A stretch of 56,737 nt of DNA, filler included, from Dugesia japonica (Eukaryota): assembly GCA_001938525.1 (NCBI GenBank). It is 5 parts of 5 records of this genome, joined end to end, with 100 filler letters (N's around TTAATTAATTAA, not from the genome) between each part and the next. Parts side by side here need not be neighbours in the genome. Positions count along the whole stretch, not along the records: positions 1 to 10,683 come from MQRL01637098.1; 4 more parts are not named here. One strand, 5' to 3'. Below, in pieces: positions 4,170-53,850 of this stretch. Below the pieces are notes generated by a model. It saw nothing but the letters and a program-made list of their open reading frames with translations. It was not told the origin of the DNA and searched no databases. The stretch's first letter is position 1. Every line of letters begins with the position of its first letter. The position numbers and the translations under genes are program-made.

Positions 4170-5313
4170 AGTGCCAATAAGAGGCGTCACGTTAACCCTT
4201 ATAACAGGGACCTGACGTGTTAGCTGATCACACCAACTTACCGCACGTTGAGGCACTGGTGGAGCGAATACAGAATTTTGGTGAGCGGCGAAACTACTAT
4301 TCATGGTATGTTCCCCTGCAAAGCTTAGTAACTCGCTTCACGTATTGGCCATCACCAGCTCCACCCGGGGTAAGAGCCGGGATAAATAATTTGTTATGGA
4401 GTGTCCGGGATTCGAAAAATACAGAAAATATCGAAAATATTGAGAACACTCAGATCCCTGAAAACTAATCTTATTGGTGTCATATTTTTAATAAATGTCT
4501 CTCCGTTAAACTCATGAATAAATCCTGTTTTAGACTAAATTAAGCATTCTCGAAATTAATTTTATTTTTGTGCAATAAATTGGTTGATCGCTAAAATTTT
4601 TAGTGACAATTTTTTCTTTATAAATCCTTCTGTTTTAATCTAACTATTAACCACACTAGAGTGGTATCTAATCGTCAACGATGTTTTCTATTTAGTGGTC
4701 AGAATACGTCTTCCTAATAGCCTGCGATGATGTTATAGGTTGATCCAGAAACTACTGATGGAAAGTCACTTTGCTAAACGTAATGAGCGCGCTTTATTGC
4801 GTCACCTAACCCAACGAAATCGTTTAATTGAAAAATTAGATTTAATAGTTAAGAAACCAGGAGCATTGGCCGAACGCACCAGACAGATACTCAAAAATAA
4901 AATTAACTTTCTGAACAGGTACATCGCTGACTTGTCCTCCCAATTAGAGCTCGGGTCATGGACAAAATGGAACAGCGATGACGACGAGGACGCATTCGAT
5001 TTACTGAATGACGAGCCGCCCCAGTGACTTGATCCGGGTGCATTAAATTATATCTAATTAAAGTCTGTCGTGATGTAATAGATTTTTCTTATGCTGTAGT
5101 TATTGATATAATAAGTGAAGTATTTAAATTGGGGAATATTGAACCCGAAATAAAGGTGTATGAGTGTGTACTTCAAATAAGCGTTTGAAGTCAATTGTTC
5201 TGCACTGACAACCTAAATAGGGGCTTTAGGTAAATTCTTGAAAGGGTCCCCTTAAGGCTGTCTTTTCCCCCGGCCACATTTTTTTTCTAAACCAAACTCA
5301 GGTGGAACCCCAA

Positions 5314-5315
<2 letters not shown>
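4170..5315 (+). mobile_element. Unclassified multi-ORF element, family 1, copy 1 (ORF B, ORF D, structured terminus)
   Basis: ORF 4217-4468 is homologous to 26523-26876. The exon 4696-5057 is homologous to 9571-9953 and 25670-25997. The terminal module 5131-5315 is homologous to 9319-9505 and 27761-27940. It ends CCCCAACA directly against (TTA)n. Confidence 0.85.
4696..5057 (+). pseudogene. Family 1 ORF D (basic coiled-coil protein with acidic W-x-x-D-D-D-x tail), decayed
   Basis: Begins tttag|TG GTC AGA. Two in-frame TGA sit at codons that are R and W in the other copies. The true end 'LDPGALNYI*' matches 'LDPGALDLI*' of copy 2. Confidence 0.75.
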
Positions 5316-5485: not shown

Positions 5486-6379
5486 GAAAATTAATAAAGT
5501 CATTTAAAATGAAACTTTATTGTTATATATTTCGACGGATCAACAGATAAAAATGAGTTTATTTAACATATATTATTTAAACAAAGATTTAAGCAATTAT
5601 ACTGCATCGATGGTTATAATTCTTAATTTTAGAAAATTCTTTTATATATTGTTTTATATATTTTTTAAAAATTTTTCAATAAAAAATTAAATTAAAATAT
5701 TTTTTTAAAATTACTGTATTTTAAATTTATAAAATTGAATACGTTTTTCCAAAACTATACAATAATTAAAATTTACAATTATTTTAAAAAATAAATTTCA
5801 AAACCTCTAGAAACCTATAAAAACATGAACATATTAAAAAATCAAAAATTGAAAGAATTTTTTATATCTGAAAAATTTTAATCAATTAAGTCGAATGAGC
5901 TGCCTGTACATTAATACTTGGATTATGAAATCTAATCATTAACGCCTCATACAACACTCTCTCCCAGTAATTTTTAAATTGCTTAGACAAAAGTTGAAAA
6001 TTTTAAATTTCAACATTCGCATTTCAATTACTGTTATTTTTATATTTATGCTCAGCAATATTACTACCACCACCAAAACGATTATGCTATTGAACCCTTG
6101 TACAAAGATGACGGGCAGTCTCTCCATTGTATGTGGCATCACACCCATTGCATTTAAATTGATAAAAAAGATTAGAACACAAACCAATTAGTGTATGGGA
6201 TTTATTAACAAAGCTTTACAATCTTATGAGAAGTAGAGACAATTTTCAATAAAGGAAGATACTTAGCAGCTTTCAGAATCAAGTGATTAAAAATTTTAAA
6301 ACTTTCAGAATAAAGAATCGATAAAACAAATGGATCAATACAGTTTGATAAAGTGTCATCTGATTCATAATATTACAAC

Positions 6380-7640
6380 CTTTTTCAGTCTTTTTTTTAT
6401 ATCGAAATCAATGTTTTGTCAATTGTCTGTGAAGTCAATGAATTTAAAAATTGTTTAATATATCTATCCAACCAACTCTAATTTCTCTCGACACCCGAAT
6501 TTTAATACCCACTTCTCCATTATTGCTATCCTTATGGTATATTCATCTTGTCTTGCTATTGCTATCAAGGCTACATACTTACTGTATGAATCTATTATAA
6601 CGAGAACATCATTTTTGACCTCTTGTCTTCTGCATCTACACACATCTATAAATAACAATTCAAACATTTCGGCTGGTTGTGTCTTTTTCGTTTCTGCTTT
6701 CATTTGTATTGTCAACACTTTAGCTTTCTGGCATGTTATACAGCTTCAAAAAACCTCTTGTACTTTGCTCCACAATTATTTTGCGTTATGTTTATGCTTT
6801 ATATACGCTGTTACGTTTTTTGCACAAGAATGACATAATAGATTGTGTATCTTTATTAAAATCTCTTCTATTTTATGATAGGGTATCCATGTTCCTTCAT
6901 CATTTTCTTCAAAATTGTCTTGCTTCTCTTGGATATTTACTGTATTTAACATCCTTCTTTTTAATTTTCCATTTTTGAAATCTTCATATGCCATTAGTCA
7001 TTGTGTACATTTATCACATTCATTCCTTGACAACTTATCTGTATTCGTATGAAGTTATCCTTTTCTATACTCCAATTTTATATCTAAACTGCTCAAGTAA
7101 TTAATTCAAGTTTGAAACTGTGATGTGATTGTTGTCTTGACATTTAGCATAAAAGTGATAGCTTTATGGTCTGTTCTGAGGATAAATCTCTTGCCGTATA
7201 ATGATGTTTGAAATTAATACAAAAGTAGTGAATTGCGAGTAATTCTTTTCGCGTAGTACAATATCCTTGTCATTGNNNNNNNNNNNNNNNNNNNNNNNNN
7301 NNNNNNNNNNNNNNNNNNNNNNNNNGCAATTACTCTTTCTTGTCCATTGTTGTTCCTTGGAGATAGTACTGGACCAATCGTGTCGAAACTCGCATCCGTG
7401 TCCAAAATAAATTCTTTATTTATACCTGGAAAACATAATATTGGAGACATCANTAGTGCTTCTTTCATTCCATTAAAAACGTCTTCTAATTCATTCGCCC
7501 ATTCAATTTTCTTGTTACTCGACCCACTACACAGTTGTTCCAAAAATCTAGCTTTTTTCGAATAATCTTTAATAAACTTGCGATAGTAATTGCAAATGCC
7601 GAGAAAACGTCTCATTTTCTTAACGCATTTTAGTTTACCA
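6380..7640 (-). mobile_element. Gypsy LTR retrotransposon pol remnant (RT connection, RNase H, integrase)
   Basis: 'RRFLGICNYYRKFIKDYS', 'FILDTDAS', integrase zinc-finger 'HNLLCH', and 'VIIDSYSKY...EKWVLKFG'. Frameshifted. Confidence 0.9.
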
Positions 7641-9570
7641 AATATAATATAATATAAAATTAAAATATAAAATTAAATGAATCAATTGTTTTTAGTATTG
7701 AAATTTAAAATTAAAATATTTAGCATTTTCCGTTTTTAAACGAATTTTTAAGTTTGTTTGAATAAAACAAACTTATTTTTACAGTTTTTATTTGAAATAA
7801 ATTTTAATATGGAGTCGAATTTTGATGTTGATGATCCGATGAGTACTCAAAACTCATCTAACACTGTCTATACATTGTTTAAAGGACTACTATTAAAAAC
7901 ATTCTTCATTCTCACTGAAACGAGTGTGCAGAACTAAGTTACTTATAATGGTAATAGTTATGGTTATAATTATAAAAAATCTTTAATACTTGAACACTAC
8001 GTTTTAATCTTTTTGATTCCATGGACCAGCAATAAACTTTTCACAATTTTTGTGGACAATTAACACCAAACAAGAGATCATATTCGTTTATGTAGTGAAG
8101 TCCATGTAAACGAAGGAGAGCCGACGCCGCTACACACCACGTTTAATAATAATAAGTTTTTATTGAAATGTAATGAGACTCAATCGTTAATAGCATTTGA
8201 TTTTGTGTAATTATAATAAACAATATTATTTGCAAGAATTTTACGTTGTACAACCAGTGTACGCTCTCGGTTTCTCTCCTCCTTGAGAGTGCTGTAACTG
8301 CCCATTTGNNNNNNNNNNNNNNNNNNNNNNNNNNNNNNNNNNNNNNNNNNNNNNNNNNNNNNNNNNNNNNNNNNNNNNNNNNNNNNNNNNNNNNNNNNNN
8401 NNNNNNNNNNNNNNNNNNNNNNNNNNNNNNNNNNNNNNNNNNNNNNNNNNNNNNNNNNNNNNNNNNNNNNNNNNNNNNNNNNNNNNNNNNNNNNNNNNNN
8501 GCCTCGATGGAAAATAACTTGGAAATCAATTCAACAATTTAAGTCTTGAAAACCTTTTTCGATTTAAACACATCAAAAGGTTTTTAATAAATTACATTAA
8601 TGAAACTCTTAGGTATTTATTGGTATTAATGGAAAAAATTTATTCAGCCAGTAGGTTTCTTCAGAACCAGGATTACAGTGCCAGGAATTTTCCATCCTGG
8701 GAACTTGGTGCCGGAACCGGGATTTTGAAATTTGAATTTTAAATAGTAGTTGAAACAGAATATTTATTTTTATTATTGAATTTATTACATACAATATAAA
8801 TATAAATTACATAATGCATACATAATAAATAGAAACACATCCATATGCACAATTAAATTCACAATACTCAATAAGCATAAAACGCAAAACAGTGTCAATT
8901 TCACAGTTTACATTAGGGCGTGGAAGTTCACACCTAGGATAATGTAAACATCCTGGTCTGGTACACACTTAACCACCTACTCTAATGAATTATATTTATC
9001 TTATTATTCCCATAAAAAGGTAACACCTAGTGATTCAGACTAACATAAATATACACATGCACTTCAGTCACAAAATCATATATACATACAACATATACAT
9101 CCATATACAACCAACATACATAGAATAAACAGAATATAACATTCTTTACGAATATTCTATAAATTCAATCAACATCCGATACTAAATATACAGCCAAGAT
9201 TCAATTATCAACAGATTACCAATTGATCAAACCTATTCAACTTATGACAATTATTCGCAATGTCATTTAGTTTCATTTTGATCAATGACAATTATTTTTA
9301 TTAGACTATCAATAATGTTGTTGGGGTCCCACCTGAGTTGAGTGATAAGAAAAAGGCGGCTGGAGAAAAAACAGCCCTCAGGGGAACCCTTTCAAGAATT
9401 TACCCTACCGTCCCTGTGGTAGGTTTTCAGTCTATGACGGTTGACCTTACTCTTAATGGAAGNTACACGTCGATAAACCTTTATTTCGGGTTCAATATTT
9501 TTCCCTTATTGGTATTTTTAAAGCCAAGAAATTACAATTCTGTATACAGATATTTATTACATAAAAATAT

Positions 9571-9953
9571 TTAAATTAAGTCAAGCGCTCCTGGGTCCAA
9601 CCATTGGTCTGGATCGGTCATGGAGAATTTGAACGCGGCAATGTCGTCATTATCATCCCATTGCAATATTGTGGGGTTGTTTATCTGACGGGAGAGGTCG
9701 GCAATATACTGTTTGCGAAATTCTATTTTTCTCAACAGTATTTGTTTATTTTCTGTCTCAAGTGCTTTGGTTTGGGATGCCAGATCCGTTTGTTTTCTTA
9801 CCATCAGATCTAACTTTTTTATAAGTTGGTCACGCTGAGCTAAATGTTTGAGGATGGCCTTATCTGCCTTACGTTTTAGATGCCTCTCAANNNNNNNNNN
9901 NNNNNNNNNNNNNNNNNNNNNNCGCAAACTCGTCGGAAATATGATTCTTGGCA
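9571..9953 (-). CDS. Family 1 ORF D
   Basis: Open frame apart from an N gap, beginning ttttag|TG CCA AGA ATC. Homologous to copies 1 and 3. Confidence 0.65.
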
Positions 9954-10077
9954 CTAAAATTAAGAATTACAATTAAGTGGTCAAAACCCAATTCCGAAAA
10001 AATAAACAAAATTTAGGTAATAAATGGTTTATTAAAAGTCATAACATAGCGGATAAGGTAACTCAAGAACAGCCAGT

Positions 10078-10421
10078 TTAGGTTCCTTTATCAATCATGA
10101 GAGGAGCCAGGGGGATAGCGGCCCTCAACTTCACTATATTATCTAACAATTGATTTTCTCGTTCCTGATGGGACTTGATAATGTTGGTAAAAGTCTCAAC
10201 CTGGGACTTCCACACCCGCTCTTGATTCTGGGTAGCATCCATCTCGACTTTAAAATTTAGGCATTTTCGCTTATGGCGTTTCACCTTGGCTTCTGCCGTG
10301 GTGGTCTCTGCCTCCCACCTCCTTTTGGCTAATCGATAAAGATCCCAAGTCATCTCTTTGTCATCATTCTCTTCACGTATTTTTTTGGTAGGGGCCTGGG
10401 ACCTATTTAAAGATGAATGCA
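10078..10421 (-). CDS. Family 1 ORF C, coiled-coil protein (WDLYRLAKRRWEAE)
   Basis: Open 114-codon frame beginning tttcag|TG. Strongly similar to 26114-26400 on another scaffold. AATAAA follows the stop. Confidence 0.65.
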
Positions 10422-10683
10422 CTGAAATATAAATATGCTTTTAAGGCGTTATACTTTATTCAGATTCAACTGTTATTAGAAAAGCTGTGTCGTTTAGATT
10501 ACAAATAATAATAAATGAAATTAATAAACTCAATTCCATTACCAATATAGTTATGTGGTACGATTAACAAAAATGGATACAATCAAAATCAAAATTAAAT
10601 GACTTCTCCCCGAAATCAATTCACAAGAAAATTTAGAATTAGTCATAAATCAAACACTTATTTATTTTTAACAAAAAACCAAG

Positions 10684-10783
10684 NNNNNNNNNNNNNNNNN
10701 NNNNNNNNNNNNNNNNNNNNNNNNNNNTTAATTAATTAANNNNNNNNNNNNNNNNNNNNNNNNNNNNNNNNNNNNNNNNNNNN
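10684..10783. other. Artificial scaffold-joining spacer (44N + TTAATTAATTAA + 44N)
   Basis: Identical 100-bp construct, with stops in all six frames, also at 19530-19629, 27991-28090 and 40024-40123. Confidence 0.95.
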
Positions 10784-10850
10784 AAATATAAATATAAATA
10801 TAAATATAAATATAAATATAAATATAAATATAAATATAAATATAAATATA
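10784..10850. repeat. (TAAATA)n hexamer microsatellite
   Basis: Directly visible. Confidence 0.95.
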
Positions 10851-10869
10851 TATATAATATATTTGTTAG

Positions 10870-11634
10870 ATAACCATTTTGTCGAAAATTCTAGTTCAAA
10901 TATCAATAATGAAGTAAGTTATATATTAATTTGAAATTAATTAACACATTTCATTAAGAATGATATTGAATTAAAAAATGTAAATAAAATCTTTGAAACC
11001 AATTATGAAACTGAACAAATTAATATTTTATCAAAACATTCCCAAGATATTGAACATTATCAAAAGGAAATCAATTCAAATTGCGAATTTATGAAAATAG
11101 AAAATGAAAATAATTTAAATGATGAGGAAAATGATGACATTAATTTAATAAAGAAGATGAGACTGAATGAAAATTATGAAGCCTTGGAAACAGTTGATAA
11201 AATATTTAAACAATATCCAGAGAGTTGTTGTAATAATCCTAAACGTGATATGAATTTATTAAATGATCAAGATGAAATAATTTCTGATGAAAATAATCGA
11301 AATGTTTGCTCATTAAAAACAAAGGATTCTGAATTAGAATTAAAAGAATATAAAAATGAAGAAATATTGAACTCTAATAATCTCCAAGAATTAATACAAA
11401 ATGATGTAATAAATTGTAATAATCATAATATTAATATTGATACAAAGGATTGTACGAAAAATAATGATATAACTTCAATTTCTATAGAATCTGATAGAAA
11501 TCAATTATTGATGATAGAGAAAAATTCTAGTCAAGAAAAATTGGATTTTTTAGTATGTGATAACGAAAACAAAAGTAAATCGAATTTCGCAACGGAAAAT
11601 TATTTTACCCAGTCTAAACCGATTTCTGTACAAG
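10870..11634 (+). CDS. Filamin-like gene, N/E-rich two-exon cassette copy 1 (exons 10870-10913 and 10959-11634)
   Basis: AG/GT sites, 45-nt intron, open frame ending 'PISVQ G|gt' (phase 1), which matches the phase of the filamin exon at 19249. Confidence 0.7.
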
Positions 11635-15210: not shown

Positions 15211-15319
15211 GAATTTCGAAAAGTTATAATTTGTTTGATAAATATTTTAAAAACTTTTAATTTTATTTATGTTTGCAACTACTTTCAACTGTTAGTAAAT
15301 AATGTAATATATTTTATAG

Positions 15320-16150
15320 ATAATATTAATGTCGAAAGTTCTAGTTCAAATATCAATGATGAAGTAAGTTATATATTAATTTTAAATTAATTAACACATT
15401 TTATTAAGAATGATGTTGAATTAAAAAATGTATATGAAATTTTTGAAAACAATTATGAAACTGAACAAATTAATATTTTATCAAAACATTCCCAAGATAT
15501 TGAACATTATCAAAATGAAATCAATTCAAATTGCGAATTTATGAAAATAGAAAATGAAAACAATTTACATGATGAAGAAAATGATGGCATTAATTTAATG
15601 GAAAAGTTGAAACAGAATGAAAATGATAAAGGAAATTATGTAGTCCAGGAAACCGATGATAAAATATTTAAACAATATCCGGAGAGTTATTGTGATAATC
15701 CAATTGTAAAAAAGAATGTGAGTTTGTTAAGTAAACGAAATGAAAAAAATCCTGATGAAAATAATTCAAATATTTATTCATTAATAACGAATGATTCTGA
15801 ATTAGAAATTAAAGAAAATATGTCAAAAGAAAATGTAAATAATATATTACAAAACATAAATAAAGAGCAAAACAATGAAAACAATCTCAATTTCAATAAC
15901 TGTTCAATAAATGGTCTACAAAATTTAATAATAGATAATATATTCCAATGTGATAATGAGAATATTAATATCTCGGATATTACAAAGAAAAACGATGTAA
16001 CTTCAATTTTTAATGAATCTAGTGGTAACAAATTATTATTGATGAAAAAATATACTAATCAATATTTTAATTATGATGATGAAGATGATAATCAATCGAA
16101 CTTTATTATTCTAAATTATCTAATTCCATCTAGACCAATTTCAATACAAG
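15320..16150 (+). CDS. Filamin-like gene, N/E-rich two-exon cassette copy 2 (exons 15320-15363 and 15409-16150)
   Basis: Paralog of 10870-11634 with the same splice sites and a near-identical 45-nt intron. Ends 'PISIQ G|gtaat'. Confidence 0.7.
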
Positions 16151-19524: not shown

Positions 19525-20106
19525 GTTAGNNNNNNNNNNNNNNNNNNNNNNNNNNNNNNNNNNNNNNNNNNNNTTAATTAATTAANNNNNNNNNNNNNNN
19601 NNNNNNNNNNNNNNNNNNNNNNNNNNNNNGAAGTGTGTATAAAAAAATGTTACCCGCTTATTTTAGATATTAATTATAATTAATAATAATAAAAATAAAA
19701 AAACAAATAATAAATAAAAAGTACTTTATTAAAAGATCCAAAAACTCCAATAAATCAGGATTGCCTAATTAATTGATAATAATAAAAATGAAAATCATAT
19801 TTTGTGTTTTTTGATCTTAATAAATATATATATATATATATATATACACTAATTTTTTCAAAAACATTACAAATAAAAAAAATAATAATAACAATGAAAC
19901 TTACTGATCAAACCCTACAACTCAATGATAAAGTATAATTCTATTAACAAATAAATTCCAAATTGCAATGGTGTACAATGATATTTGCTAATGAGGAAAA
20001 GGTTTTCCAAAATAAAATTTATTACAATTTATAACTTTAAATATTTATTTGATTTAATTATAAAGTCATTTTTTAAAACCGGAAATGAATTTTCGAATTA
20101 AAATGT

Positions 20107-23824: not shown

Positions 23825-24548
<724 letters not shown>

Positions 24549-26113
24549 TAATTCCTAGGCAAAAAAGTCTTATCCGAGTGCTTTATTATATTTCTGTGTA
24601 ATAAAAATAATAAAATTAATAATAATTAGTTCAATTTTCAATTCGATTGTCGCAAAGTTTGGAATGTTGATGTGCAATATTTGAATGATGTGAGAGATTA
24701 ACAATTTGATTTTCAACATGATTAAATAAACAGTTATTGACTTGTCTTGTCGTCTATATTAATGGTAATGACTAAGAAATACCGCGTAATAAAATTAATA
24801 CCGTATCTTAATTACATTGTTATTTTGTCGACAATCAATATGCTGTAAAATGGGTGTAAAGTAGTAGTGTCTGTCATACAGAGATAATGGTGACTAATGA
24901 AATGCACAAAATATTCTTTCTTGTATCTGGTTTTTACACGCTACTGTAAATAACTATTCTAATTTCAAATGTAAAATTATGTAATTATTTTTTGAATAAA
25001 TGATTTTTTTTCTTTTTTTTGGTGAAATATTTTATTGTATGTCTAAATTTTCCATATTTTTTGTAATAAATTAATTTTACTTCAAAGAGAACAGTCAAAG
25101 TAATATAATTTTTTTTAGAAATTATTAGATAATTGTAGAACATTATTTCTATTTTCTGAGTAGATAGGTAGTAGCACTCCAACTCACCCCCCAGGAGATA
25201 ATTTTTTCAGGCCGACTTTTCATGAAAATTTATTTGAAAATTTTTAAAAACTTAGATTTCGAGAATTTTGTCCAATACACAAGCACTCTCAAAAGAACTT
25301 CTTTCTTTCCTCCTAGCTTTAATCATCATTCAAAGCAAAATGTTTACTATGATTAAGAATATAATATTTAAAAGTCAATATTACTTATTCACAACAAATA
25401 AAATGAAACTAATACTAGAATTCTCACCGAGTAGACTTGATATTATAATAATATTAGACACAAATTAAATAACAAAAGATTTTCAAACAACAATTTATTT
25501 AAATTAAATCTTGTTTCTATCCATCTGATTGAGCTGTTTTGAACTTGTGAGTTGAAAGTAATAAAAATTCATTAATTTCAATGAATAAATAACAAATCAT
25601 AACCTTTACATTATCTGGATAAACTTATTCGCTACGGTTTGAACTACTATAATGTTTGAACTACTATATAAAATTGAAGGTGGCATCGTCGTCGTCATTG
25701 TTCCATTGCTCCCAAGTTGGTGGTTGAGTCGGCGAGAGAGATCCGATATATATTGCTTGAGGAAGTCAATTTTCCTCTGCAGCAACAATTTGTTTTCGTC
25801 TTCTAACGCTTTGATCTGCCTTGCCAGGTCATTTTGTTTTTTCACAATCTGATCAAGTTTCTTGATCCGACAATCTCGTTGGTTCAAATGTTTGATCAGT
25901 GCTTAATCGGTTTTCCGCTTTAGATGACGTTCTAATAGTAGGCAGCGCAATATGCGATGGCATCTGCGGATACTATTGGGAAAGGTGATGCGGGGCACTA
26001 AAAGAAATTAAATTAGCATATAGGCAACTTAGCAAAAATTATCAAACGCTACAACAATAACTGATTTCACAAGAACGCTTAAATGAAACATTTATTTATG
26101 AAAACGAGTAGGG

Positions 26114-26400
26114 TCATGTCCGAGGGGTTTCAGTGCTTTTCTCAATCATCAAAGGCTCGAGAGGGATCCTTTCCCTGAGATGTAAAACATCATCAACCAG
26201 TTTATTCTCTCGGTCATGGCTGGACTGGATTATTTCCGCAAAGGACTCGACCTGTTTTTTCCATACCCGCTCCTGCAAGTGGGAGGCCTCGGCTTCCTTT
26301 TTAAAGGCGATACACTTTTTCTTGTACCTAGATACATTACTATTTGCGGCGGCTATTTCTGCCTCCCATCGTCGCTTTGCAAGACGGTAGAGGTCCCAAC
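26114..26400 (-). CDS. Family 1 ORF C, coiled-coil protein
   Basis: WDLYRLAKRRWEAE...QERVWK.QVE.F...PL.PLMI shared with 10078-10421. The start is uncertain. Confidence 0.65.
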
Positions 26401-26522
26401 TAATAAAATAATACTTAGTATAACTCCGATTACTAATACTAAGTTCTAGATCACCCAAATCGTCTTGATATTTTAGAACAGGACAACTAGATAATTTTAT
26501 TATACGTCACACATATAAATCA

Positions 26523-26876
26523 CTAAAAAGGAGTGGATAAATCCGGCGCGGGTGCAGTATTTTCCGAGTCTTCGCTACCTGAGGGTTCCCTTATTCCCCA
26601 GAGTAGGTTAGAGGGAAAGGCCTGTACCGCGGGCACTGGAGTTGGAGTGGGAGGCCGATACTGAAAGGATGTTGCAATGGTGCGATTAGGGACTGCCCAG
26701 GCTTGGTATCGCTGACGCTCGCCAAAGTCTCTTATGCGCTCGACGATGGACTCTACAGGAGGCAAACTAGATCTGTCGGCCAAAATGCACGCGTCCCGAT
26801 TGTGGGGTTTGTGGTGTCGTCGGAAGATTATTCGACGAGTTCTTCTATCCACTATCCTTTCCAATATTGATTCCAT
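26523..26876 (-). CDS. Family 1 ORF B, 117-aa Arg/Pro-rich protein
   Basis: ATG 1 nt after the tttatag acceptor. Conserved with 4180-4468 (LAD..LP.VE..VERI..FGER..Y..W.VP; NLLW). Confidence 0.7.
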   Translation of the reverse strand: MESILERIVDRRTRRIIFRRHHKPHNRDACILADRSSLPPVESIVERIRDFGERQRYQAWAVPNRTIATSFQYRPPTPTPVPAVQAFPSNLLWGIREPSGSEDSENTAPAPDLSTPF

Positions 26877-27025
26877 TCTATAAATAACCGAAATTTTGTT
26901 TAAATTATAATATATAATTTCCTTTTAAATTAATTAATGGTAACAGAAATAAACAACAAATAGATTTAATCAAATCATCAGTTTATTTTAGACAATTAAC
27001 AGTAATTGGCAGATTACACTCCTGC

Positions 27026-27220
27026 TTAGAAAGGCGTACTCTTCGCATCTAGATCTACTGGAGTCACTGAGGGGAACATCTCCGCGAAACAGCAAAGATC
27101 TGTCTCATCCGGGTGTTCAATTCTTCCCTTAGTTAATAGATGGGCAATGAACTGTCTTAATCGAGCAGTTTGACGTCGTCGTTTTATCCATTGGAGAGTA
27201 CGGCGCAATTCGGGTGTCAT
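27026..27220 (-). CDS. Family 1 ORF A, 64-aa basic protein
   Basis: ATG 3 nt after the ttattcag acceptor. GC-richer than the flanks. AATAAA downstream. Confidence 0.55.
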   Translation of the reverse strand: MTPELRRTLQWIKRRRQTARLRQFIAHLLTKGRIEHPDETDLCCFAEMFPSVTPVDLDAKSTPF

Positions 27221-27760
27221 GAACTGAATAAAGACAACAAATATTAAATGATGACTCCTACAAAAAAAATTTCATTACTATTGCCGGCTTTTATTAATAG
27301 GACGACTCGTTCCATTTCCACGATACTAGTTTACTGAATAATTTTAATTTAGACTCATTGGTCAATATTAGAATCTTAATAACATTTTTAACATTCATCA
27401 TAAAGATAGTAGGGCTAAACGTAGTATTTTTTTATCTTACCAGGGATAAACGTCACCTTGAGCATGTTAATAATAATGGTAATAATATAACGGATCATAA
27501 TTTCAACGATGACACTACCCATATGGCCAATAGTAATGTTCATAACTACCACATTGAGAATGATTTTAACAGTAATCAGGACGATGATCATACTAATGAT
27601 AGTACTGTTAAAGATAGTAAAAATAATAGTTGAATTATTTCAAGTTTACTGGTACTTAAAGTAGTATTAATACTGTTAATTTCGTCAACCATAACCATAA
27701 AATTAGCACTCCCAACCATAAGGATAATATCGGTAATATTAATAGTCTTAGTATTGATAG

Positions 27761-27940
27761 TGTTGGGGTTTCACCTGAGTTGGAAAAGGTGACTGGGGAA
27801 AAACAGTCCTCAGGGGAACCCTTTCAAGAATTTAAACCCTACCGTCCCTATGGTAGGTTTTCAGTTTATTGTGGTTGACTTTTCTCTTGATGGAAAGTTC
27901 TCACCAATAAACCTTCTGTTCGGGTTCTATATTTTCCCAA
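27761..27940 (+). other. Family 1 structured terminal module (third copy of the module)
   Basis: Homologous to 9319-9505 and to the reverse complement of 5131-5315. Begins TGTTGGGG. Confidence 0.85.
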
Positions 27941-28090
27941 TAATATTTAAACTATTTTAATTAACATTTAATATTACGAAAAGAATTTAANNNNNNNNNN
28001 NNNNNNNNNNNNNNNNNNNNNNNNNNNNNNNNNNTTAATTAATTAANNNNNNNNNNNNNNNNNNNNNNNNNNNNNNNNNNNNNNNNNNNN

Positions 28091-30670: not shown

Positions 30671-31199
30671 TCTATACCATAGAAACCAGATTTATTTATT
30701 TAACAACCCAAAATTTAATAAAAGAGTTTATAATTCTTATTTCTTTAGCTGAAATAATATTGTTTAGAGTAAGTAATATAATTAAAGTTATAAAGCTTAA
30801 ATGGGAACACATTTTCATTTTTTTACTCTAAACCAAACCAAAATTTGGCCCATTTGAATAAAATTTTAAAAAATTATTTTAAAAATTTTCATGAACAGTT
30901 GGCTACCTAAGTATTTGAGACCATAGCTGGGTAGGAAAATGGGGGCACATTAAGTGAATTTCACTGTAATTAAGTTTGATTATTAGTATAATATTAATAA
31001 TATAAATATGTATTCTGACTTGATATTTACGCAAACTTTTATAAAATTTTCTTTAATATTGATTTGAACAATTATTTATTATTTCAATTATAATTTAAAA
31101 TGAATAAACTACAATTTATTAGTAGTTAGAACACAAGATTCTTCCATAAAAATACTTTTTTTTGTCGTTCATCTTTCTTTTTTTTCATATTTCTTTTTC

Positions 31200-31324
31200 T
31201 GTAACGTCGTCGCTAGTTAGAACACAAGATTCCTCAATAAATGTTTATTTATTAAAATACAAACAATAATTACAAAACTGATAAAAATTAAACAAAGTTT
31301 ATATTTCAATTTATAACTGATATA
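31200..31324 (-). repeat. Putative 3' LTR (~125 bp)
   Basis: Similar to 35287-35412. On the minus strand it is preceded by purine-rich AAAAGAGAG. Confidence 0.65.
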
Positions 31325-34300
31325 GAACTGCTCTCTTTTAATTTTGAGTTTCAATTTTCTTCAGCCATTCCAATCTTCTAGTTTTGAGTTTCCCTGCAAA
31401 GTCAATAATCACATGGTGTGGGCTTATGAATTTAATTATTTTATATGGACCTTCATTTCTTAAACCATCTTTCTTCAGCTTATTTGGATGACCTATACTA
31501 ATACTTCCTCCCCTTCATTAAATTGTCTATACGTTCGTCTGTGAAATTCACATTTGCTTAACTTTTTAGCCTCTTCATGTAAGTTTTGTCATCTGCTATT
31601 GCTTTCATTTTTTATGATCTGAAATTTCTTGTTGTAGTAACACAAGTAAAACTATCTTTCTTCCAAAGATGATTTCGAAAGGAGATAATCCAGATGATTT
31701 CTGTTTAGTCGCATTCATAGATAATTGTATTCTTGGTAGTAATTTGTCCCAGCTTGCTTCCAAACATCCATTTTTTATCGTTGTTACCATCATATCTCTC
31801 AAAGTTCTGATGCTTCCTTCAGCTAAGCCATTTAATTGATGCTGATATGGTGATGCGAACTCTTGTTTTATCTCAAATTTATTTGCATTAATTTTGCTTC
31901 AAAAATCTTTCATTTATCAGTTAAAAATGACTTCGGTTTCCCAAAACGATATATCTACTGCTCTTTTATCGCATCAACTACTGACTTTTCATCCTGTTTA
32001 TTCAATGCTACAAAAGAAACTAACTTACATAATCTGTCAACCGTGACGAAAACATATTTTTTCTTAGTTTTTGCTTCGGGAAAATGAACAATATCCATGA
32101 CAACCTGTTCTAAAGGTACATACTTTGTTCTTAGGATCAGATACTCTTTCGTTTTACCAGTGTATGTCTTTCTCATATTGCATATCATACATTTTTTAAT
32201 TGGTGTTCTACAATCCGTTTTATATTTGGCCAAAAATAACTTAGATTTAAATATTCTGTCAGATTTTGACCTCCTGCGTGACATAATAAGTTTGGGTATC
32301 GATTGCCCTGCAAGTACTATTTTCTTTTTGTTATTTTCATTGGTAATTAACAGCTCATCACTCATCTCAAATTTTTCCATTTTTGAAAATTTTTACTTTT
32401 CGTCACCATAGCTCAGCTATCTATCACCTTTTCCTTTTTCTGTATATTCAATAATTTCTCTTGTAACAAGATCATTTCTTTGTATTTCTTTGATACGACA
32501 TTTAACAAAATCTGTTTATCTAATACATTGATTCTTTTAACCCGAGCTCGTTCTCCCTTGGCATCTTGATTTGACTTCTAAAATTGTGAACACCAGCTTT
32601 CGCCTATTCTTGAATGTCCGCCAGCATACCTTTGTGCTGCTCCTTTTCTGAATTCTAGATCGAAATTAAATTCTGCTAAATTTGTTATCCATGTTTGGAA
32701 CTGCGAACTAATAGGTTTACTCGTCTTCGTCATAAATGCCAAAGGTTCATGATCTGTTCTTGCTGTAATTTTTTTCCGTTTAAATAATGTTTGAAATACA
32801 CCATAAACTTGTGCAATGCCAACAACTCCATGCGATTTACTCAATATCCTTTTTCATGATCATTTAAAGTGCGAGAACCACAAGCTATTACTTGTTCTAA
32901 TCCATAATTTGTAACTTGGCTTAGAACTCCTCCAATGCCTCAAAACTAGCATTTGTATCTAATATCATTTCATTTTTATAATTTGGAAAAGCGAAGATAG
33001 GAGCACTACATAACTTAATCTTTAACATTTAAAAACTAATTTCACATTCCTTTGTCCATTCGATGTTTTTTTCATGGCTCGCAGTGGCTGCATATAAATG
33101 TGCTACAATGAGAGCGTAGTCTTTTATAAACCGCCTGTAATAATTGGTTAGACCAAGAAATGCCCGTATTTGTTTGGTGCATTTTGGTGTCTACGCTTTT
33201 CAAATTTTCCTGATAGTATTGTCATTTATCTCTACACCTTTAGCACTAATTGTATGATCCAAGAATCGAAATTTCTCAGAATGTGTATTCAACGCATTTA
33301 TCCGGATTTATCTTTCAATCTGTTTATTTGAATAAAGAAAAAACTTTACCAACCCGCTTATCATGCTCTTGTTGAGTTCGACCATATATCAAAAAATCAT
33401 CCAAGTATACTGGTACTCCTTTATACAACATTCCGTCGAATAATTGATGCATCAAACTTTGGAAAGTTGCTGTTGCAGTGCGATCAAAACCAAACTGCCC
33501 CATTTTCGTACTAAAAACTGTCTTCAACTTCGATTCTTCACTTAATTTAATTTGATTGTATGCTTGTCCCAAATCGAGCAACGAAAAAAAGTGATACCTC
33601 AAGCGTGTCTAAAAGTAGTTGAATATCAGTCACCTGAAAGGAGTTTTTATCTGAAATTGAATTTAATTTCTGAAAATCCAGACACATTCTTATTGCTCCG
33701 CCTTTATTCAGTACAATTACCACTGGTGAATTCAACGGACTTCTGAAACTCTTGATAATATTTGCTTTTCTAAGATTTCTCAATAACACATCACTTTTGC
33801 TTTCCAAATGCATTGGCTGTCTTCTAGGATTTAACATTATTGATCCTCTTTTTGTTTCAATGTGATGTAGCATTATTGTTGTAAATCCAAGATCAAATTT
33901 CGATGTCATAAATATCTCTACGTGTTCTTCTATCAGTTTTATAATTTCTTGATTGATATTCTTTTAAATATTCATAACCTTTTTTACTCTTTTTGAATTC
34001 TCAACTTGCTCAACAACAACATCCTTTGAATCAATAAAATCAATTTCGGTCATCTTCATTCCAAATATTCTCATCATATCAATGCCCCCAATAAATTCGG
34101 GACGAATATTTTTGACAATTACTACTTCTTTTTCTCTTCATTTCCCATACCAATGTATATGTAATTTAGTTATACCAATACATCTTTTTCCTTTCTCTGA
34201 AAATGTTTCTGATAATACAATCTGCTACTGCGATAACTCTAGTGATTTAATTCTTCTCCAAACGTCTGCACTTATTACTGACATTGATGCTCCCGAATTC

Positions 34301-35286
34301 CATAATATTTCAACGTCAAATCCATTACGCTGCATTATGCTTCATTCTCTCCGATCGTTCTTCTGAAATACCTTCTTTTTATCAAATATAATTCTTGAAT
34401 CTCTGGTTTTACAATCGGTTATTGCAGCCTCACTGATGAAGTAGTTTGCCAATCTTTTTTATATCGTCATCGTCTGTAGGGACATCATGTATATAATCTA
34501 TCGATTTCCTTGTACAGGACCAATTATCATCTTCATCTGCAACACACAAAACACACCGAAAAATCCTTTACTCGAAATGATAAACAATCACGAAAACTAT
34601 GACCTTCCTTTCCACAAATTAAGTATTTTCCTTTCAATGGCCAATTCATCCTTCTATGACTAGTTTCTCCACATGCTCCTGCCTTTATGATTTCGTTTCG
34701 CGACGTTATCTTACCTTTAGCTTTACAATATAGTTTATTTGCTAGATGTTTCAATGAATACTGCGGGAAACTATTGTACTGACCTTGTCTTTGTATCGGC
34801 TTACTTTATTTGAAATATGGATCATCTTGAGTTGGTCGGTCTCTAATATTTGTGTCCTTTTGAACACTTATCTTCAGGTGATTGTTTCCAAATTTGGATT
34901 GATATATATTCTTTTTTAATGATTCAGCATAACTCTCTTTCATCATATTTCCAGAGTATTAGGTTATCCAATTTAGTAGCCAATTCCCTTCGTTGAATAC
35001 CTGTTAACTATGGTTGGATGACAAATGATTCCTTCAACTTTTCGCTCCGTATGCCATTAGTTATAAGCAATGTAGCTATTTCATCTAATGACTTTTTACT
35101 TGAAAATACTTNNTTGAAAATACTTTATATAATAATTTCATAAAATAAATTAAAAATATCGATATTTAATTTTATGAAATATTTTATTTTACATGTTTTA
35201 AAAATAAGTTTTAATATTATAAATATAAAAATTAAAGAAAAATCTCTCAGATATTTAAATCTATGAATGATTCTTACAGTGGTCAC

Positions 35287-35412
35287 TGTAACGTGGTCTC
35301 TAGTTAGAACACAAGATTCCCCCATAAATTTTTATTTATTAAAATTCAAATAATAATTACAAAAACTGATAATATTTAAATAAAGTTTAAATATCAATTT
35401 ATAACTGATACA
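35287..35412 (-). repeat. Putative 5' LTR (~126 bp)
   Basis: TG...CA ends, similar to 31200-31324. No clear primer-binding site seen. Confidence 0.55.
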
Positions 35413-35752
35413 TAACTTTAGTTATTAAATTATTACAATACATATATTAATATCAATTTCTTTAATCCCGTCTATTTGTTGAAATTTTGTTGTTTATATC
35501 TTAATGATCTTTTGTGATATGAATTCTAATTTATGAAGTCTCTTCAATAATTGTTAAAATAAAGTTAATTAATTTATCGTAAATTGGATTATAGATTNNN
35601 NNNNNNNNNNNNNNNNNNNNNNNNNNNNNNNNNNNNNNNNNNNNNNNNNNNNNNNNNNNNNNNNNNNNNNNTTTTTTTTATAAAAATCACTAAAATTATG
35701 TAGTTATCAAATAATAACACAAATAGGACTATATTTTTAAATATAATCTAGT

Positions 35753-39386: not shown

Positions 39387-40123
39387 GTAATAATTATTTA
39401 TTTTATTCGATTAGACAAGTTAATTGTATATTTGAATTATAATTTAGAAATAATTGAATTTATTTCACTAAGCATATTCTTTAAAATAAAAAATTGGACC
39501 TTTAACTGTCACTATTTATTTATTATTTAATACTTAAATTACTAAATTTATTCAGAACACGAAAGAAAATTATTTAATATTTTTTAAGGAGTTCGATAAT
39601 TTTGGAAAAATTATTACTATTCGAATTTGTTTTTAATTTCTTGATTAATGAAATGATTTTTTATTTAATTATTTAATGTAAATAATATTTTTAAAAATAG
39701 CAAAAAATAATCTATTGTTTTATTTACATAAGAAAGTTTTAAAGAATTTTATTGTTTTTAAAGATATGTATTTTGAATAGAGCTGAGTTATTTTAAATTT
39801 GAAGTTATTAATTAATGCAATATTATCAATAAAGTTTTCCCTAAATGTTTTAAAATTATAACATATTTGCTTCCAAAATTAATGTTTTCTTTTGTCAAAT
39901 ATTTTCCAAAAATATTTTGACATTTCTAAATTTCTGTGAAACGCCATTTCAATGTATATTTTTGTACTAGATGTTTCGACAGAATATCTGTCATCTTCAA
40001 ATACAATATTTAATTCTTTATTGNNNNNNNNNNNNNNNNNNNNNNNNNNNNNNNNNNNNNNNNNNNNTTAATTAATTAANNNNNNNNNNNNNNNNNNNNN
40101 NNNNNNNNNNNNNNNNNNNNNNN

Positions 40124-46320: not shown

Positions 46321-46441
46321 AAATTTTAAAATGAGCCTGATGACTCATCATAACATTAATATCTTTTATAATTAATAATATTAATTAATTAAATTTTTTA
46401 CAATAATAGTAATAATAAATAATAATAATATCAATAATAAT

Positions 46442-46476
46442 AATTCTATATTTCGACTTTGTCTTCGTCAGGAATT
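46442..46476 (-). ncRNA. Minimal type I hammerhead ribozyme (Penelope-like element type)
   Basis: Minus strand reads AAUUC-CUGACGA-A-GAC AAA GUC-GAAA-UAUA-GAAUU: complete core, stem I AAUUC/GAAUU, stem II GAC/GUC, palindromic minimal stem III AUAU, cleavage after UA. Confidence 0.8.
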
Positions 46477-46480
46477 TACT

Positions 46481-46513
46481 TTTCCTGACAAAGACAAGTC
46501 GAAATATAGAATT
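46481..46513 (+). ncRNA. Inverted second hammerhead copy, core mutated (CUGACAA)
   Basis: UUC-CUGACAA-A-GAC AA GUC-GAAA-UAUA-GAAUU. G8 is changed to A. Confidence 0.65.
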
Positions 46514-47306
46514 ATTATGAAAACCAAAAAAAGAATTTTGATCGAATCTTTTAATTTAATGAAAACAATCAATAGTTACGTCCAACAATTATTCTCGCAA
46601 TAATTGCAATTGTAAAATAATACTTTAATGATGATAATACCAATAATAATAACAATAATATTACTATTGTTGAGGTCATGGGTNATATGGCTAGTAAAAA
46701 ATATATCACTCATAACCCGCAAACTGGGATTTGATGTACTCGTCCTTCGAGTACGTTGATGGCAGCCCCGTTGACTCTTACACAACGTTAAGAGTGCTTG
46801 AGCGCACCATCTGCATGTTATTCGGGTTCATTTTTCATCGACGATAGAAATCGTTTCAGAGAAAAACCAATAATTTACGAACATGATATTTTTAAAGAAT
46901 TAAAAATCGTTACTTTAATACATAATTGAAAACAATAATCACCTGTCACCTCATAAAGAGCAAATCTCAAAACCGATAACTGCCTAACTAAATCATTCCT
47001 TCTTTTCTTCTCCATTTTTAACATACACCTGAGCATTATCTTGTGGATCATTCTGACATCCTCATTTGAGAAGCATTCATGAAGTTTTCATTTGAAAATA
47101 AAAGCCGGAATAATCTGTTTTTCATTACACGTTTCCAAAAAACATATGTCTGATTCTTTCCTTCTGACAGAACAAAAAATTTTCATATATCTCTTAAAAA
47201 CAGGTCACGCAAGTGAATAATTACGATTCAAAAACTCAAAAAATATTGGTAATTTTTAAATTTTTTTTATATAAAGGTTGTATCTCAATCTCAAAGGTTA
47301 TAGATA

Positions 47307-47669: not shown

Positions 47670-47744
47670 TATAAATATGTTCAATAATAAATCTATAACC
47701 ACTTTAGGACTTGCGCCCTGATCTGGTATATCAATTTAAATGTA

Positions 47745-48072
47745 ATGAGTGTAACGCCACATACATTGTCATCTCTGCCCCAGAGTTCAGATAATAATAT
47801 TGTTGAGCATCTAAGAAAATGTATAAAATCAATAGGGTTTTCTGATTTTACAATCTTGTGCAGTAGATTTAATAATTATTGTGAGATAGTAATGTGTGAA
47901 GCTTTGTTGATAAGGGCATTAAATCCTAAAATTAATGTTCAGTGGACGGATTCAACATCGCTCTTAAAATTATTTTATTGATTATTTATTAAGATTGCCT
48001 AATTGAAATTATATAATCATTTAAACTTTGTAAAAAGTTTGTTTTAATATTCTTTAATTGCCTGATGATGAT
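47745..48072 (+). mobile_element. Penelope-like retroelement 3' end (GIY-YIG endonuclease C-terminus)
   Basis: 'NIVEHLRKC...DFTIL...CEALLIRALNPKINVQ...LLKLF*', followed ~80 nt later by CCTGATGATG, the start of a truncated hammerhead core. Confidence 0.8.
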
Positions 48073-50720: not shown

Positions 50721-53403
50721 TGTTAGATCCCAAAAGAGTCTGCCAAGTTGTGTGGCAACAGGAGGGGTATATACGTATGTAGGGTGCAAAAATTAAATTC
50801 GTATTTGTGTAGAAATAATTTAGGTATAATAGAAATAACAATAAAACAATAACGAAATTAAAAGTTAATTAACGAACGTTTACTTATCAACCAAAATAAT
50901 TATATAATGTAAGTTTACTATTTTTTTGTCTTTGAATGAGAATTTGAGTTATCACCGTTTTCTGTTATTTTTGACGATTGCCAGGACTTGTAGTTTAATT
51001 TTTTATTCCAATTTAAATCAATGGTCTTTTGTGGGCAAACAATACTTTTTAATTTTTCCTTTTTTTGGCGGTTGCCAACTTTTTAATTTATCATTTTAAA
51101 TTCTTTTTTGTGTCAATATTTTTATTGACCTCATTTTTCTAGAATTAATTTTTATTATAGTATATTAGTATACATATGTGTATGTATATATACAAACATA
51201 ATATGAGTACACAGATACATATAATAATTTTTAAAAATATAAATAAAAGTTCATAACAAATACAATTGAAAAAGTACAAAATATTACGTTTAAAACTGAA
51301 AAAAGCAATACCAACTGATGAAGTCTTGAATAAATAAAATGAACTGGCACTGAATTAATTCCAACGAAATATTTGTTTGATAATTGTTTTTTAAAAAACT
51401 TTCAATCTTTTGAAATATTTAAACAATAGAATTTTAAACATAAAATTAACACTTAATTTAAAATAAAGTTCCTAAAATTTAATTCAATAATAGTGTTTCT
51501 CAAAGTGAATAATAACGAATGATGCGTTATTTAATAATAGAGAATGATGTGTAGTCGAATATTACCACAAAAAATTTATGATTATATTTTTTAATGGTAC
51601 AGCAGTTGACCCTTTAAAGGGTCAAGTGAAGCCAAATTATTAAAATTACATTATTATTTAAATATTTAGAAATATTTAAATAAACAAATAGTATTGCATT
51701 GTTTAATTTTCAACAGAATATTATCTGTTTAGAAAATATAGAATTTTTTTAAGAGATCTATAATGAAGAATAGATGCATAATTTACTCCATTGATGAAGA
51801 CATAGAATGTAATGTAGATATACCAGATCCAACTGATAATTTCTTTGTTACGGACTGTGAAAAAATGAGTAGCTCATCAATTACAATTGTGAGTATGTTT
51901 TGAAAAGCGAGTTGAAATTTTTGTGTTTGGAAATCATTTTCTTAAAATCTTTTGTTAAAAATTGAAAGCTAGAAATTAAAGTAATTTAACTAGAGCTCTT
52001 CGAATCTTTTCTTTAAATGAAGGACTTTTTTATTTTTAAATCATGAATTAAATTTACATCAGCAATATGTCTATCTCTTAAATCTTTCGATTTATAAACA
52101 ATATCGTGTTATAATGTTGCAGCATCAACTTTATTTGTTAGGTCTTCTTTTTTATTTTATTATTATTTTCATCTAATTTTGCATTTGGTCCAGTATAATT
52201 ATGTCTAAATTAATGTCTTTCTCCAGTATATTTTTCAAAAGCAAATGGTTTTAATAAGAATGAAGTAACTTTAGAAGATTAAATATCTCCGCCAGTTTTC
52301 ACCCATGGAAATTTATTATGATTTAAATTATTATTATTTGTTGGTTTATTTGATTGTTTTATAATTATTGTTCCAAAAGTAGAATTAAGATTTTTAAATC
52401 ACTCATTTTCGAATGAAAAATTAATTTATTTACAGAAATTTCGCGTCTCCTCTAACGTTTTATATTATGCCTATTTTTCCTCAATAACTGAACAAATTCT
52501 ATTTAAATAATTTGCAAATATTTATTTATGAGAATTTAATCTTTCTGTTGGGTTTTTAGGTTTTTTTATGTTAAATATTTTGGTTTAACTTTCACTATAT
52601 TCTACTCGCTTTTACAATTTAATTAATAAAATCATAATTCAGGGGCATACCTAAAAACCACATGTATTTATAGTACCTCTGCACTATGCCTCTCTCTTTT
52701 CTGGGTCCAGCGCAACTTTTCGGTATCACGTCTTACTCTCGATTGATGGTAATGGACAACCATTCCTTCCACGCTCAGTATTTGATCTTCACAAATTATA
52801 TGATTAAAACTAGTCATACATAACCATTACGAAAATTTATTGGAAACTTTTTAACACCGATAACTATTTATTATACATACGACAATAAGCATCCAAATCC
52901 ACCGTGGTGCTGACCTCTGCTGGTTCCTCAGGGGAGTTCCTGTACTGCAGCTATAGTGTGCGTAAATTATTGAATACTACAGCCTCTCGATCGGCGTTAA
53001 TTTTGATTGAACCTGTTGACCTGTTGAAGGACCAGCTCATTTTCCTTAAGCTGCTGATACTTGGCGTCCCTCTTGATCATCTGACCCTTCAGTCGGAGGA
53101 CCTGATTTCGAAGCTCTCTTCGATCCTATTTCCATCTCTGTTGTGCGTTCACCAACTCCTTTTTGGATGTCATCTCTTCGTTGGCTTGAGTCACTAAATA
53201 ATTCAAAATAAATAATTATTGAAACGGTATTAATTGAATTGAGAATAATTTTTATTCATTGATGTGATAAATATCCGTTTCTTCGGCCTACCGCCTATCT
53301 GGTCTTCGTCCCCACTCCTCAGATACGAACCAGTGAAGATGGCGTGTCACAACTACCATCTTTTCTCGTTCCCATCGGTACAGAGTTCTCGTAAGATTTT
53401 CCT
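50721..53403 (-). mobile_element. Unclassified multi-ORF element, family 2, copy 2
   Basis: Terminal module TGTTAGATCCC... at 50721. Minus-strand short ORFs 53288-53401, ~52870-53193 (tttag|TG start, coiled coil) and ~52632-52790, with AATAAA between them. Confidence 0.6.
51990..52320 (-). pseudogene. Parvovirus/adintovirus-type phospholipase A2 (PLA2X) remnant
   Basis: Manual translation: 'KYTGERH*FRHNYTGPNAKLD...TNKVDAATL*HDIVYKSKDLRDRHIADVNLI'. It has the YxGP Ca-loop, the HD catalytic dyad and the R..AD motif, with two stops and one frameshift. Absent from the ORF track. Confidence 0.8.
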
Positions 53404-53589
53404 ACAAACAGAATTTTCATTTCGTAAATAAAGTAGATTTTAATTGTGGATAATTAAGCGCTCATAATAAATGAAACGGAAAATTCCATTATTTATAATA
53501 AATAAAACTGGTTGTACAGACCCTTCTAATATAATATTATATTATAGTATATTATTTTTATTATATAATTCTTCGTCGCCTTTTTATTT

Positions 53590-53850
53590 GCTATACTAAA
53601 ATTTGGCAGTGCAAAGAAATGTAAACTCTTTATCCAAACCTCTGGCAGAAAATGAAATTGCTCATAATGGAATTTCCCACAGCTTACCTCGTCGAGTGTG
53701 GATTCAGTTCAGTAACTAATCTCCTCACCAATCAAAGAAGCAATCTCGATTATGCTAAGAGGCGTGATTTGAGACTGCTTCTCATCCACCTGAAACCAGA
53801 CACTAAGTCTTTAGCATCAATAAAACCAAGCACATGAGTCTCATTGACTC
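53590..53850 (+). mobile_element. hAT (Charlie/ZBED8-like) transposase C-terminal remnant
   Basis: 'FPTAYLVECGFSSVTNLLTNQRSNLD...DLRLLL..LKPD' dimerisation domain. Confidence 0.85.

Follow-up and report, generated by a model that had tools for sequence, protein, structure and literature searches.

An array of short ORFs in three copies

The window, by which we mean the whole analysed stretch of 56,737 nucleotides from Dugesia japonica, consists of five scaffolds joined by artificial linkers (10684-10783, 19530-19629, 27991-28090 and 40024-40123). Each linker is made of 44 N, a six-frame stop 12-mer and 44 N, and the sequences flanking it are not thereby genomic neighbours. The window is AT-rich, with a GC content of 17-41% per kb. 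It carries three copies of an array of short co-oriented ORFs, referred to below as A, B, C and D, which are likely decayed copies of a mobile element. Copies 1 and 2 lie on the same scaffold, and copy 3 and a second array (family 2) lie elsewhere, on other scaffolds; the true 5' ends of the units are outside the window, and within it there is no complete copy.

The order of the ORFs is A, B, C, D in copy 3, C, D in copy 2 and B, D in copy 1. In copy 3, on the minus strand, ORF A (27026..27223, 64 codons) has its ATG 3 nt past an acceptor-like site, and ORF B (26523..26877, 117 codons) has it 1 nt past such a site. They are followed by ORF C (26114..26398), with the N-terminus replaced and AG|TT in the place of AG|TG, and by ORF D (25667..25997), in which a stop occurs after 30 codons and the frame shifts late. 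Copy 2, also on the minus strand, contains ORF C (10078..10421), with 113 codons after TTTCAG|TG and its own in-frame ATG at 10353, and ORF D (9571..9953), with 126 codons, an assembly gap at 9891-9922 and a coiled-coil-like appearance by eye. Copy 1, on the plus strand, contains ORF B (4205..4468), which has lost its N-terminus and is 45% identical to its counterpart in copy 3, and ORF D (4696..5027), with an internal stop after 10 codons.

The gaps between the ORFs of copy 3 are 149 nt (A-B), 124 nt (B-C) and 116 nt (C-D); the C-D gap of copy 2 is 124 nt and the B-D gap of copy 1 is 227 nt. Neighbouring same-strand ORFs of copies 1-3 are thus at most 300 bp apart, the distance used as a criterion for operons. 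The signal AATAAA is found 13-45 nt past the stop at six of the seven ORF ends of copies 1-3, ORF D of copy 1 being the exception; as background, it occurs in 269 of 1087 windows, each twice as long as the 13-45 nt tested. In copy 2 it lies at 10028..10033 (minus strand) after ORF C, 80 nt before the start of the D exon, and at 9553..9558 (minus strand) after ORF D. From AATAAA to the next acceptor there are 63-122 nt for ORF D of all three copies, for A and B of copy 3 and for the family-2 ORF, and 39 nt for ORF C of copy 2, so that a polyadenylation signal shortly precedes the next acceptor, as is also expected in operons. A median of 99 bp between cistrons is given for S. mansoni in the accessible text of PMC12582326. 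The layout is that of SL2-type operons, and equally that of alternative last exons under one leader.

The protein products of the array have no obvious relatives. Among the 30 proteins compared with Pfam were 7 ORF copies of A, B, C and D, and none of these reached the cut-off of any family; protein searches gave no relative of B, C or D; ORF A was compared with Pfam and the window only. A single match of ORF D, to the repeat-rich protein P0001 of 1319 aa, was judged spurious. DNA motif scans of metagenome and viral contigs produced 0 matches, and the predicted fold of ORF B (mean pLDDT 36) is unusable.

The second array, family 2, occupies 52500-54300 on the minus strand and by eye shows short frames, AATAAA and acceptor-like sites at a similar spacing; its protein is unrelated to A-D. 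It includes a coiled-coil-like ORF (52994..53193, minus strand) that follows TTTAG|TG, has its own ATG 6 codons in and contains an internal stop, and a small ORF (53251..53401, minus strand) with a phase 0 start past an acceptor and AATAAA at 53256. The coiled-coil-like ORF has no significant similarity to ORF C (BLASTP E=7.1), and homology between the two was dropped for this value. Elsewhere, a weakly D-like frame of 69 codons (46878-47087, minus strand) occupies the position of D directly upstream of the fourth copy of the structured repeat described below. It gave two colinear matches to D, with E of 0.004 and 0.11, and another comparison was not significant. An ATG stands at its start, one base out of frame.

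The setting includes host genes and other repeats. The coproporphyrinogen oxidase (CPOX) and filamin genes in the window are of the animal type; CPOX lies at 23840-24548 (plus strand), its introns, read by eye, are of about 43 and about 51 nt, and in a one-exon tree (44 of 121 rows used) it has a long branch and belongs to no supported group. Remnants of reverse transcriptase and integrase occur at 6464-7672 and 31605-33963, which does not imply that they are part of the ORF-array unit. A decayed gypsy-like element spans 31199-35417, with direct repeats of about 130 nt that are 88.6% identical and with remnants of reverse transcriptase, RNase H and integrase on the minus strand. An Asn/Glu-rich coding stretch is duplicated at 10843-11352 and 15296-15820 (plus strand); its two parts are 84% identical and match no Pfam family.

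Acceptor-like sites and the starts of the ORFs

The earlier note had described AG|TG at five places, and it is indeed present at 4696 (plus strand) and at 9953, 25997, 10421 and 53193 (minus strand); at all five the long frame opens two bases past the AG, i.e., in phase 1. The statement that A and B have their own ATG was borne out as well, at the distances given above. The frame check agrees that a leader ending in AUG would suit ORF A and the frame starting at 53401, and would be out of register at the TG sites. The sites had also been described as pyrimidine-rich acceptors. They are acceptor-like; their upstream sequence is better called T/A-rich, with T+C at 9-12 of 17 nt at the five TG sites. 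The expectation that TG is kept past the acceptor holds for ORF D in three of three copies and fails for ORF C, where copy 3 has AG|TT.

For ORF D, the acceptor with its TG reads TTTAG|TG invariantly in the three copies (4691..4697, plus strand; 9952..9958 and 25996..26002, minus strand). A gapless alignment of the three copies has 7 of 8 identical columns from -6 to +2 and 5 of 54 further upstream, so that the site is conserved far more than by chance; by segments, identity is 3/30 and 2/24 upstream, 5/6 at -6 to -1, 2/2 at TG and 11/27 after it. The TTTA ahead of the GTG of ORF D is as conserved as the GTG and resembles the host acceptors in the CPOX and filamin genes. Identity of the D protein between copies is 46-59%. 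Copies 2 and 3 differ at 19, 15 and 52 sites of the first, second and third codon positions over 80 codons, and the third-position bias is already there in the first 9-10 codons past TG for all three pairs of copies (2/2/6, 5/2/7 and 4/3/6). The first in-frame Met is codon 21 in copy 1 and codon 49 in copy 2 (the gap hides codons 10-21), and the first 92 codons of copy 3 contain no in-frame Met; no in-frame Met near the N-terminus is common to the three copies. Judging by this pattern of substitutions, the N-terminus of ORF D is coding and requires one base or more from upstream sequence, since coding conservation begins at AG|TG and there is no conserved AUG nearby.

The third base is identical across all three copies in 3 of 41 codons of ORF D, which is near saturation, and among codons with invariant residues it is fixed in 2 of 17; the G of the xTG codon is fixed nonetheless. 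A start codon would fit this G better than a Val or Leu codon entered in phase 1. We regard this as modest evidence, because these ORFs contain 74 Val and Leu(CTN) codons, 23 of which have G as their last base. The fixed G does not discriminate between A|UG and G|UG.

ORF C is also constrained as a coding sequence: copies 2 and 3 differ at 34, 13 and 57 sites of the three codon positions. In copy 2 the in-frame ATG at 10353 is 22 codons into the frame and is preceded by two out-of-frame ATGs, at 10367 and 10364. A five-codon out-of-frame ORF lies at 10353-10367 (minus strand), and its stop overlaps the internal ATG of ORF C as ATGA. An overlap of the ATGA type can couple termination to reinitiation. 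Both ORF C of copy 2 and the family-2 ORF have their own in-frame AUG, so a splice-made start is unnecessary for them, and the case for it there is weak. The AG|TG case is thus strong for ORF D only, and weaker for ORF C.

As to the recurrence of AG|TG, the three D sites are homologous and descend from one ancestral site; they are therefore counted as a single origin, which leaves only 2-3 independent events among about 6 acceptors. TG follows TTYAG at 27 of 316 sites in the window, a background of 8.5%. The binomial P is 0.09 for 2/6 and 0.01 for 3/6, or 0.011 (2/6) to 0.0004 (3/6) if the frame is also demanded, in every case with sites picked after the fact. Given the few independent events, this range of P and the post hoc choice of sites, the recurrence across different ORFs is suggestive only.

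Reads were aligned on copy 3 only (25850-27330), for 4 of the 24 runs of one organism. Three of the runs are raw RNA data of 1.6-1.9 billion letters each; they gave 3, 12 and 1 reads on copy 3, 16 in total and all at most 95% alike, with none at an acceptor and no joint. The remaining run, X16, for which RNA or DNA is not on record, gave 54 contigs on the copy 3 region. Among the 8 pieces listed, at least 4 cross the D acceptor unspliced (to 26014, 26014, 26021 and 26287), a second piece of a fifth record extends to 26040, and at least 1 crosses the A acceptor unspliced. The D acceptor and its TG are unchanged among the 40 differences listed, the stop codon of D in copy 3 is changed in at least 3 contigs, and within ORF C 14 of the 21 differences among those listed are on third positions. 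At least four contigs leave copy 3 just upstream of a conserved Trp, where their loose letters contain an ATG at the place of the internal Met of ORF C in copy 2. The X16 contigs are further family members with the C-D order of copy 3. They neither confirm nor refute splicing, because X16 may be DNA and because full-length RNA of the element would be unspliced in any case.

No leader was found among the reads on copy 3, and the regions scanned contain no conserved A|GT donor; the donor-like sites common to copies 1 and 2 of the structured repeat (5229 and 9404) end in G. The splice-built start proposed by the earlier note therefore stands in part: ORF D needs upstream sequence and keeps its G, while junction, leader and donor were not encountered and ORFs of the C type have their own AUG.

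A structured repeat after ORF D

ORF D is followed in copies 1 and 2 by a repeat of about 170-185 nt. Copy 1 of the repeat (5135..5315, plus strand) runs into (ATT)n. Copy 2 (9319..9499, minus strand) is composed of two hairpins, an unpaired conserved AATTCTTGA, a third hairpin and the end CCCCAACA. Copy 3 (27761..27933, minus strand) is located upstream of ORF A, by about 540 nt; it likely represents the 3' end of another unit ahead of this one, which the scaffold linker at 27991 cuts off. A distant fourth copy (46662..46847, minus strand), followed by an ATT-rich tail, was found by a model built from the other three (20.3 bits, E about 0.003 on a rough calibration).

Among the three copies 8 of 46 pairs are changed on both sides. 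In the four-copy alignment the number is 19 of 46, compared with 7.7 for shuffles, of which none in 500 reached this number, and with 2-5 when the partners were slid; this alignment was fitted to the structure, and the covariation counts lean upward. The consensus structure has an energy of -37.9 on the ORF strand, with a covariation term of -0.54, and of -42.3 on the opposite strand, with a term of +0.89; the z-scores of single copies are weak (-0.05 to -2.7). None of the four copies matches Rfam up to E 5. The Sm-like run AATTCTTGA is unpaired between stems in three of the four copies and absent in the fourth. AAG|GU is the possible leader-end motif in copies 1-3, and AUG|GU is confined to the distant fourth. 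CAACA forms the end of every copy, two of the four have clearly ATT-rich tails, and TGAACCC with a purine run 0-3 nt before it is present in three of the four. The repeat was also considered as a fifth ORF and rejected for the frame-breaking indels between copies and the compensatory changes.

Three roles are conceivable for the repeat, namely a short LTR, a 3' structure recognised by a reverse transcriptase and an RNA that donates a leader; on the features compared here it qualifies as none of them. Of a short LTR one would expect TG...CA termini and a purine tract ahead of the 3' LTR, to be compared with the TGAACCC, its purine run and the CAACA end given above. There is no primer-binding site after the upstream repeat of copy 3, which speaks against a short LTR or TRIM. 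The only match of this kind, at 8706-8721 (plus strand), is on the other strand than the copy 2 repeat and 600 nt from the repeat; it is one match against 0.08 expected, for a pattern drawn from this same site. We take this 16-mer to be of the tRNA-Phe type. It comes after a possible LTR end and precedes an AC-rich stretch, and it probably belongs to another element into which copy 2 is inserted.

Several further features are found near the repeats. The sequence between the repeat and ORF A of copy 3 (27300-27760) is of low complexity and three-periodic, and represents either an ATT tail that has decayed or a plus-strand frame rich in Asn and Asp. A near-perfect 80-nt palindrome at 46438-46517, near the fourth repeat, has an Rfam miRNA match far below the gathering score. 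Two related fragments, 5939-6187 (minus strand) and 47691-47981 (plus strand), each lie less than 900 nt from a structured repeat, on the opposite strand. We presume that they resemble the C-terminus of Penelope-type endonucleases; the fragment 47691-47981 has no Pfam match.

A leader that may complete the start codon

We propose tentatively, with a confidence somewhat short of even, that splicing joins a non-coding leader whose last base is A to alternative acceptors, so that A|UG arises at the junction. The unit would then be a series of short intron-less ORFs, each with an acceptor-like site at its start and a polyadenylation signal at its end. Joined to these sites, the leader would create the A|UG start of ORF D and probably that of ORF C. 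The unspliced full-length RNA would give no ORF D product, and the choice of acceptor and polyadenylation site would determine which protein is made. Our inferences are the use of the AGs, a single leader common to all the ORFs, its terminal A and the mobility of the unit. An AUG-free leader with this end is the one single leader that suits A, B, ORF C of copy 2, D and the family-2 ORF together: A and B would retain their own ATG with no AUG upstream, and the A|UG start of ORF C in copy 2 would bypass its two out-of-frame ATGs. The flatworm leaders reported in the accessible text of PMC12582326 end in AUG, with rare exceptions.

The phase 1 shared by all five TG sites would also be explained by a short coding first exon (AUG, a few codons and one base) joined to D and C, with xTG as an internal codon, and the env of the ZAM and Beagle subclades is joined to a short upstream peptide according to the part of bioRxiv 10.1101/2023.08.03.551782 available to us. 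Over A and B, such an exon would be read out of frame, for 30 and 7 codons respectively, so that a second leader is needed, and an internal Val or Leu is not expected to retain its third base, a position fixed in only 3 of 41 D codons; we hold this reading unlikely. An AUG-free leader ending in G suits all the ORFs only if D starts at G|UG, and GUG is a weak initiator in animals, which counts against such a start. The leader in question could be another spliced leader of the host or come from the structured repeat of the element. It is favoured by the operon-like spacing (AATAAA 39-122 nt before acceptors, to be compared with the median of 99 bp in S. mansoni; PMC12582326, accessible text) and by the architecture of the repeat, in which an interrupted U-run separates two hairpins from a third, as in flatworm SL RNAs, and in which AAG|GU marks the foot of the first long stem in three of four copies. 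The repeat is, however, about twice the 78-103 nt of those RNAs, the U-run is missing from the fourth copy and no leader occurs among the reads on copy 3, and we consider a leader ending in G quite unlikely. One may go further and propose an animal mobile element of a kind not yet described, with an operon-like orphan ORF array and its own spliced-leader-like RNA (the ~180-nt covarying repeat with its Sm-like run), which would resolve its own polycistronic transcript and complete some of the start codons. This is highly improbable in our opinion; if it is true, the protein production of the element would depend on a private leader.

The spacing also agrees with an operon that is resolved by the usual flatworm spliced leader, which ends in AUG, and in which the TG is incidental. 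This leader is in frame for A and for 53401, planarians use SL trans-splicing (PMC10899757, as far as its accessible text goes), and reinitiation after upstream frames of 4 codons and 0 codons could give access to ORF C of copy 2 and to the family-2 ORF, respectively. What makes it improbable is ORF D, whose first codons are conserved as protein and over which the leader would run out of frame for 15, 25 and 21 codons with no conserved fallback AUG; it is out of frame for B too (a 10-codon wrong frame). There is similarly little probability that splicing does not occur at D, i.e., that the genomic GTG, with the G of the AG, starts translation or that the recurrence is chance. The X16 contigs, of a type not on record, are unspliced across the D acceptor and the binomial P is 0.09 for 2/6, both in agreement with it; yet TTTA is conserved like GTG and similar to host acceptors, and A and B likewise sit directly past acceptor-like sites. 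The T at -3 is a poor initiation context and counts against a GTG start of D as well.

The proposed A-ending leader has a precedent in mobile elements. The start codon of gypsy env in Drosophila is made of AT plus G joined by splicing (PMC2585583), and that of env in the springer subclade is made from AT and G in the same way (bioRxiv 10.1101/2023.08.03.551782), as described in the accessible portions of these sources. The likeness is that the start of an ORF of a mobile element is completed by splicing, which is here a proposal. The gypsy codon is split as AU|G and belongs to one env ORF behind gag-pol, whereas here the split would be A|UG and would serve four or more short ORFs arranged in an array, all with a polyadenylation signal of their own, in a unit with no gag, pol or env. 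The division into AU from the leader and G from the exon does not apply: the exons start with TG, which leaves one base rather than two to be supplied for the frame. The identification of the unit as an errantivirus was rejected, as there is neither gag-pol-env between LTRs nor an AU|G split.

With SL2-type operons (C. elegans; S. mansoni candidates in the accessible text of PMC12582326) the array shares co-oriented ORFs and the position of a polyadenylation signal some 100 nt ahead of the next acceptor; unlike them, it is a multicopy decaying repeat, an AUG-ending leader is out of frame for B, D and ORF C of copy 2, and the reads on copy 3 include no trans-spliced one. The flatworm SL RNA, as the same text describes it, is 78-103 nt long and consists of two hairpins, then an interrupted U-run, then a further hairpin. 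The repeat is similar in this order of hairpins, with an Sm-like run in three of four copies; it differs in being twice as long, in the missing AUG|GU in three of four copies and in the missing U-run in the fourth.

Terminons, the giant Penelope-like elements of bdelloid rotifers, have co-oriented accessory ORFs, including coiled-coil ones, and the available text of PMC6431247 also provides for a folded 3' end beside simple repeats and for head-to-tail arrays, in which our unit is similar. Unlike Terminons, the unit as assembled shows no reverse transcriptase and no telomeric repeat; ATT-rich tails follow two of the four repeats. Penelope-like elements are noted to favour microsatellites (PMC8557442, accessible part). 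No Penelope-type reverse transcriptase is present in the three units as assembled, with their 5' ends missing, and a 3'-terminal hammerhead ribozyme gave no Rfam match on the four repeat copies. The unit contains no viral hallmark gene, and there was no match in the viral contigs. In the adenovirus major late unit and the accessory genes of complex retroviruses, one non-coding leader is spliced to alternative acceptors, in adenovirus with alternative polyadenylation. The ORFs of that kind carry their own AUG, unlike ORF D.

A literature search, which covered a minority of subscription papers, found no published description of this element. The mechanism has precedent; what would be new is to find it in a multi-ORF array of orphans whose terminus is itself a new structure. 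As a repeat family the unit is unclassified, and it combines orphan proteins under purifying selection with a strongly covarying RNA structure absent from Rfam. If the A-ending leader is confirmed, the full-length RNA would be silent for ORF D, and a trick that the sources consulted describe for single env genes would have a wider use. The choice of splice site would then be an on-switch of translation across several ORFs of one mobile element.
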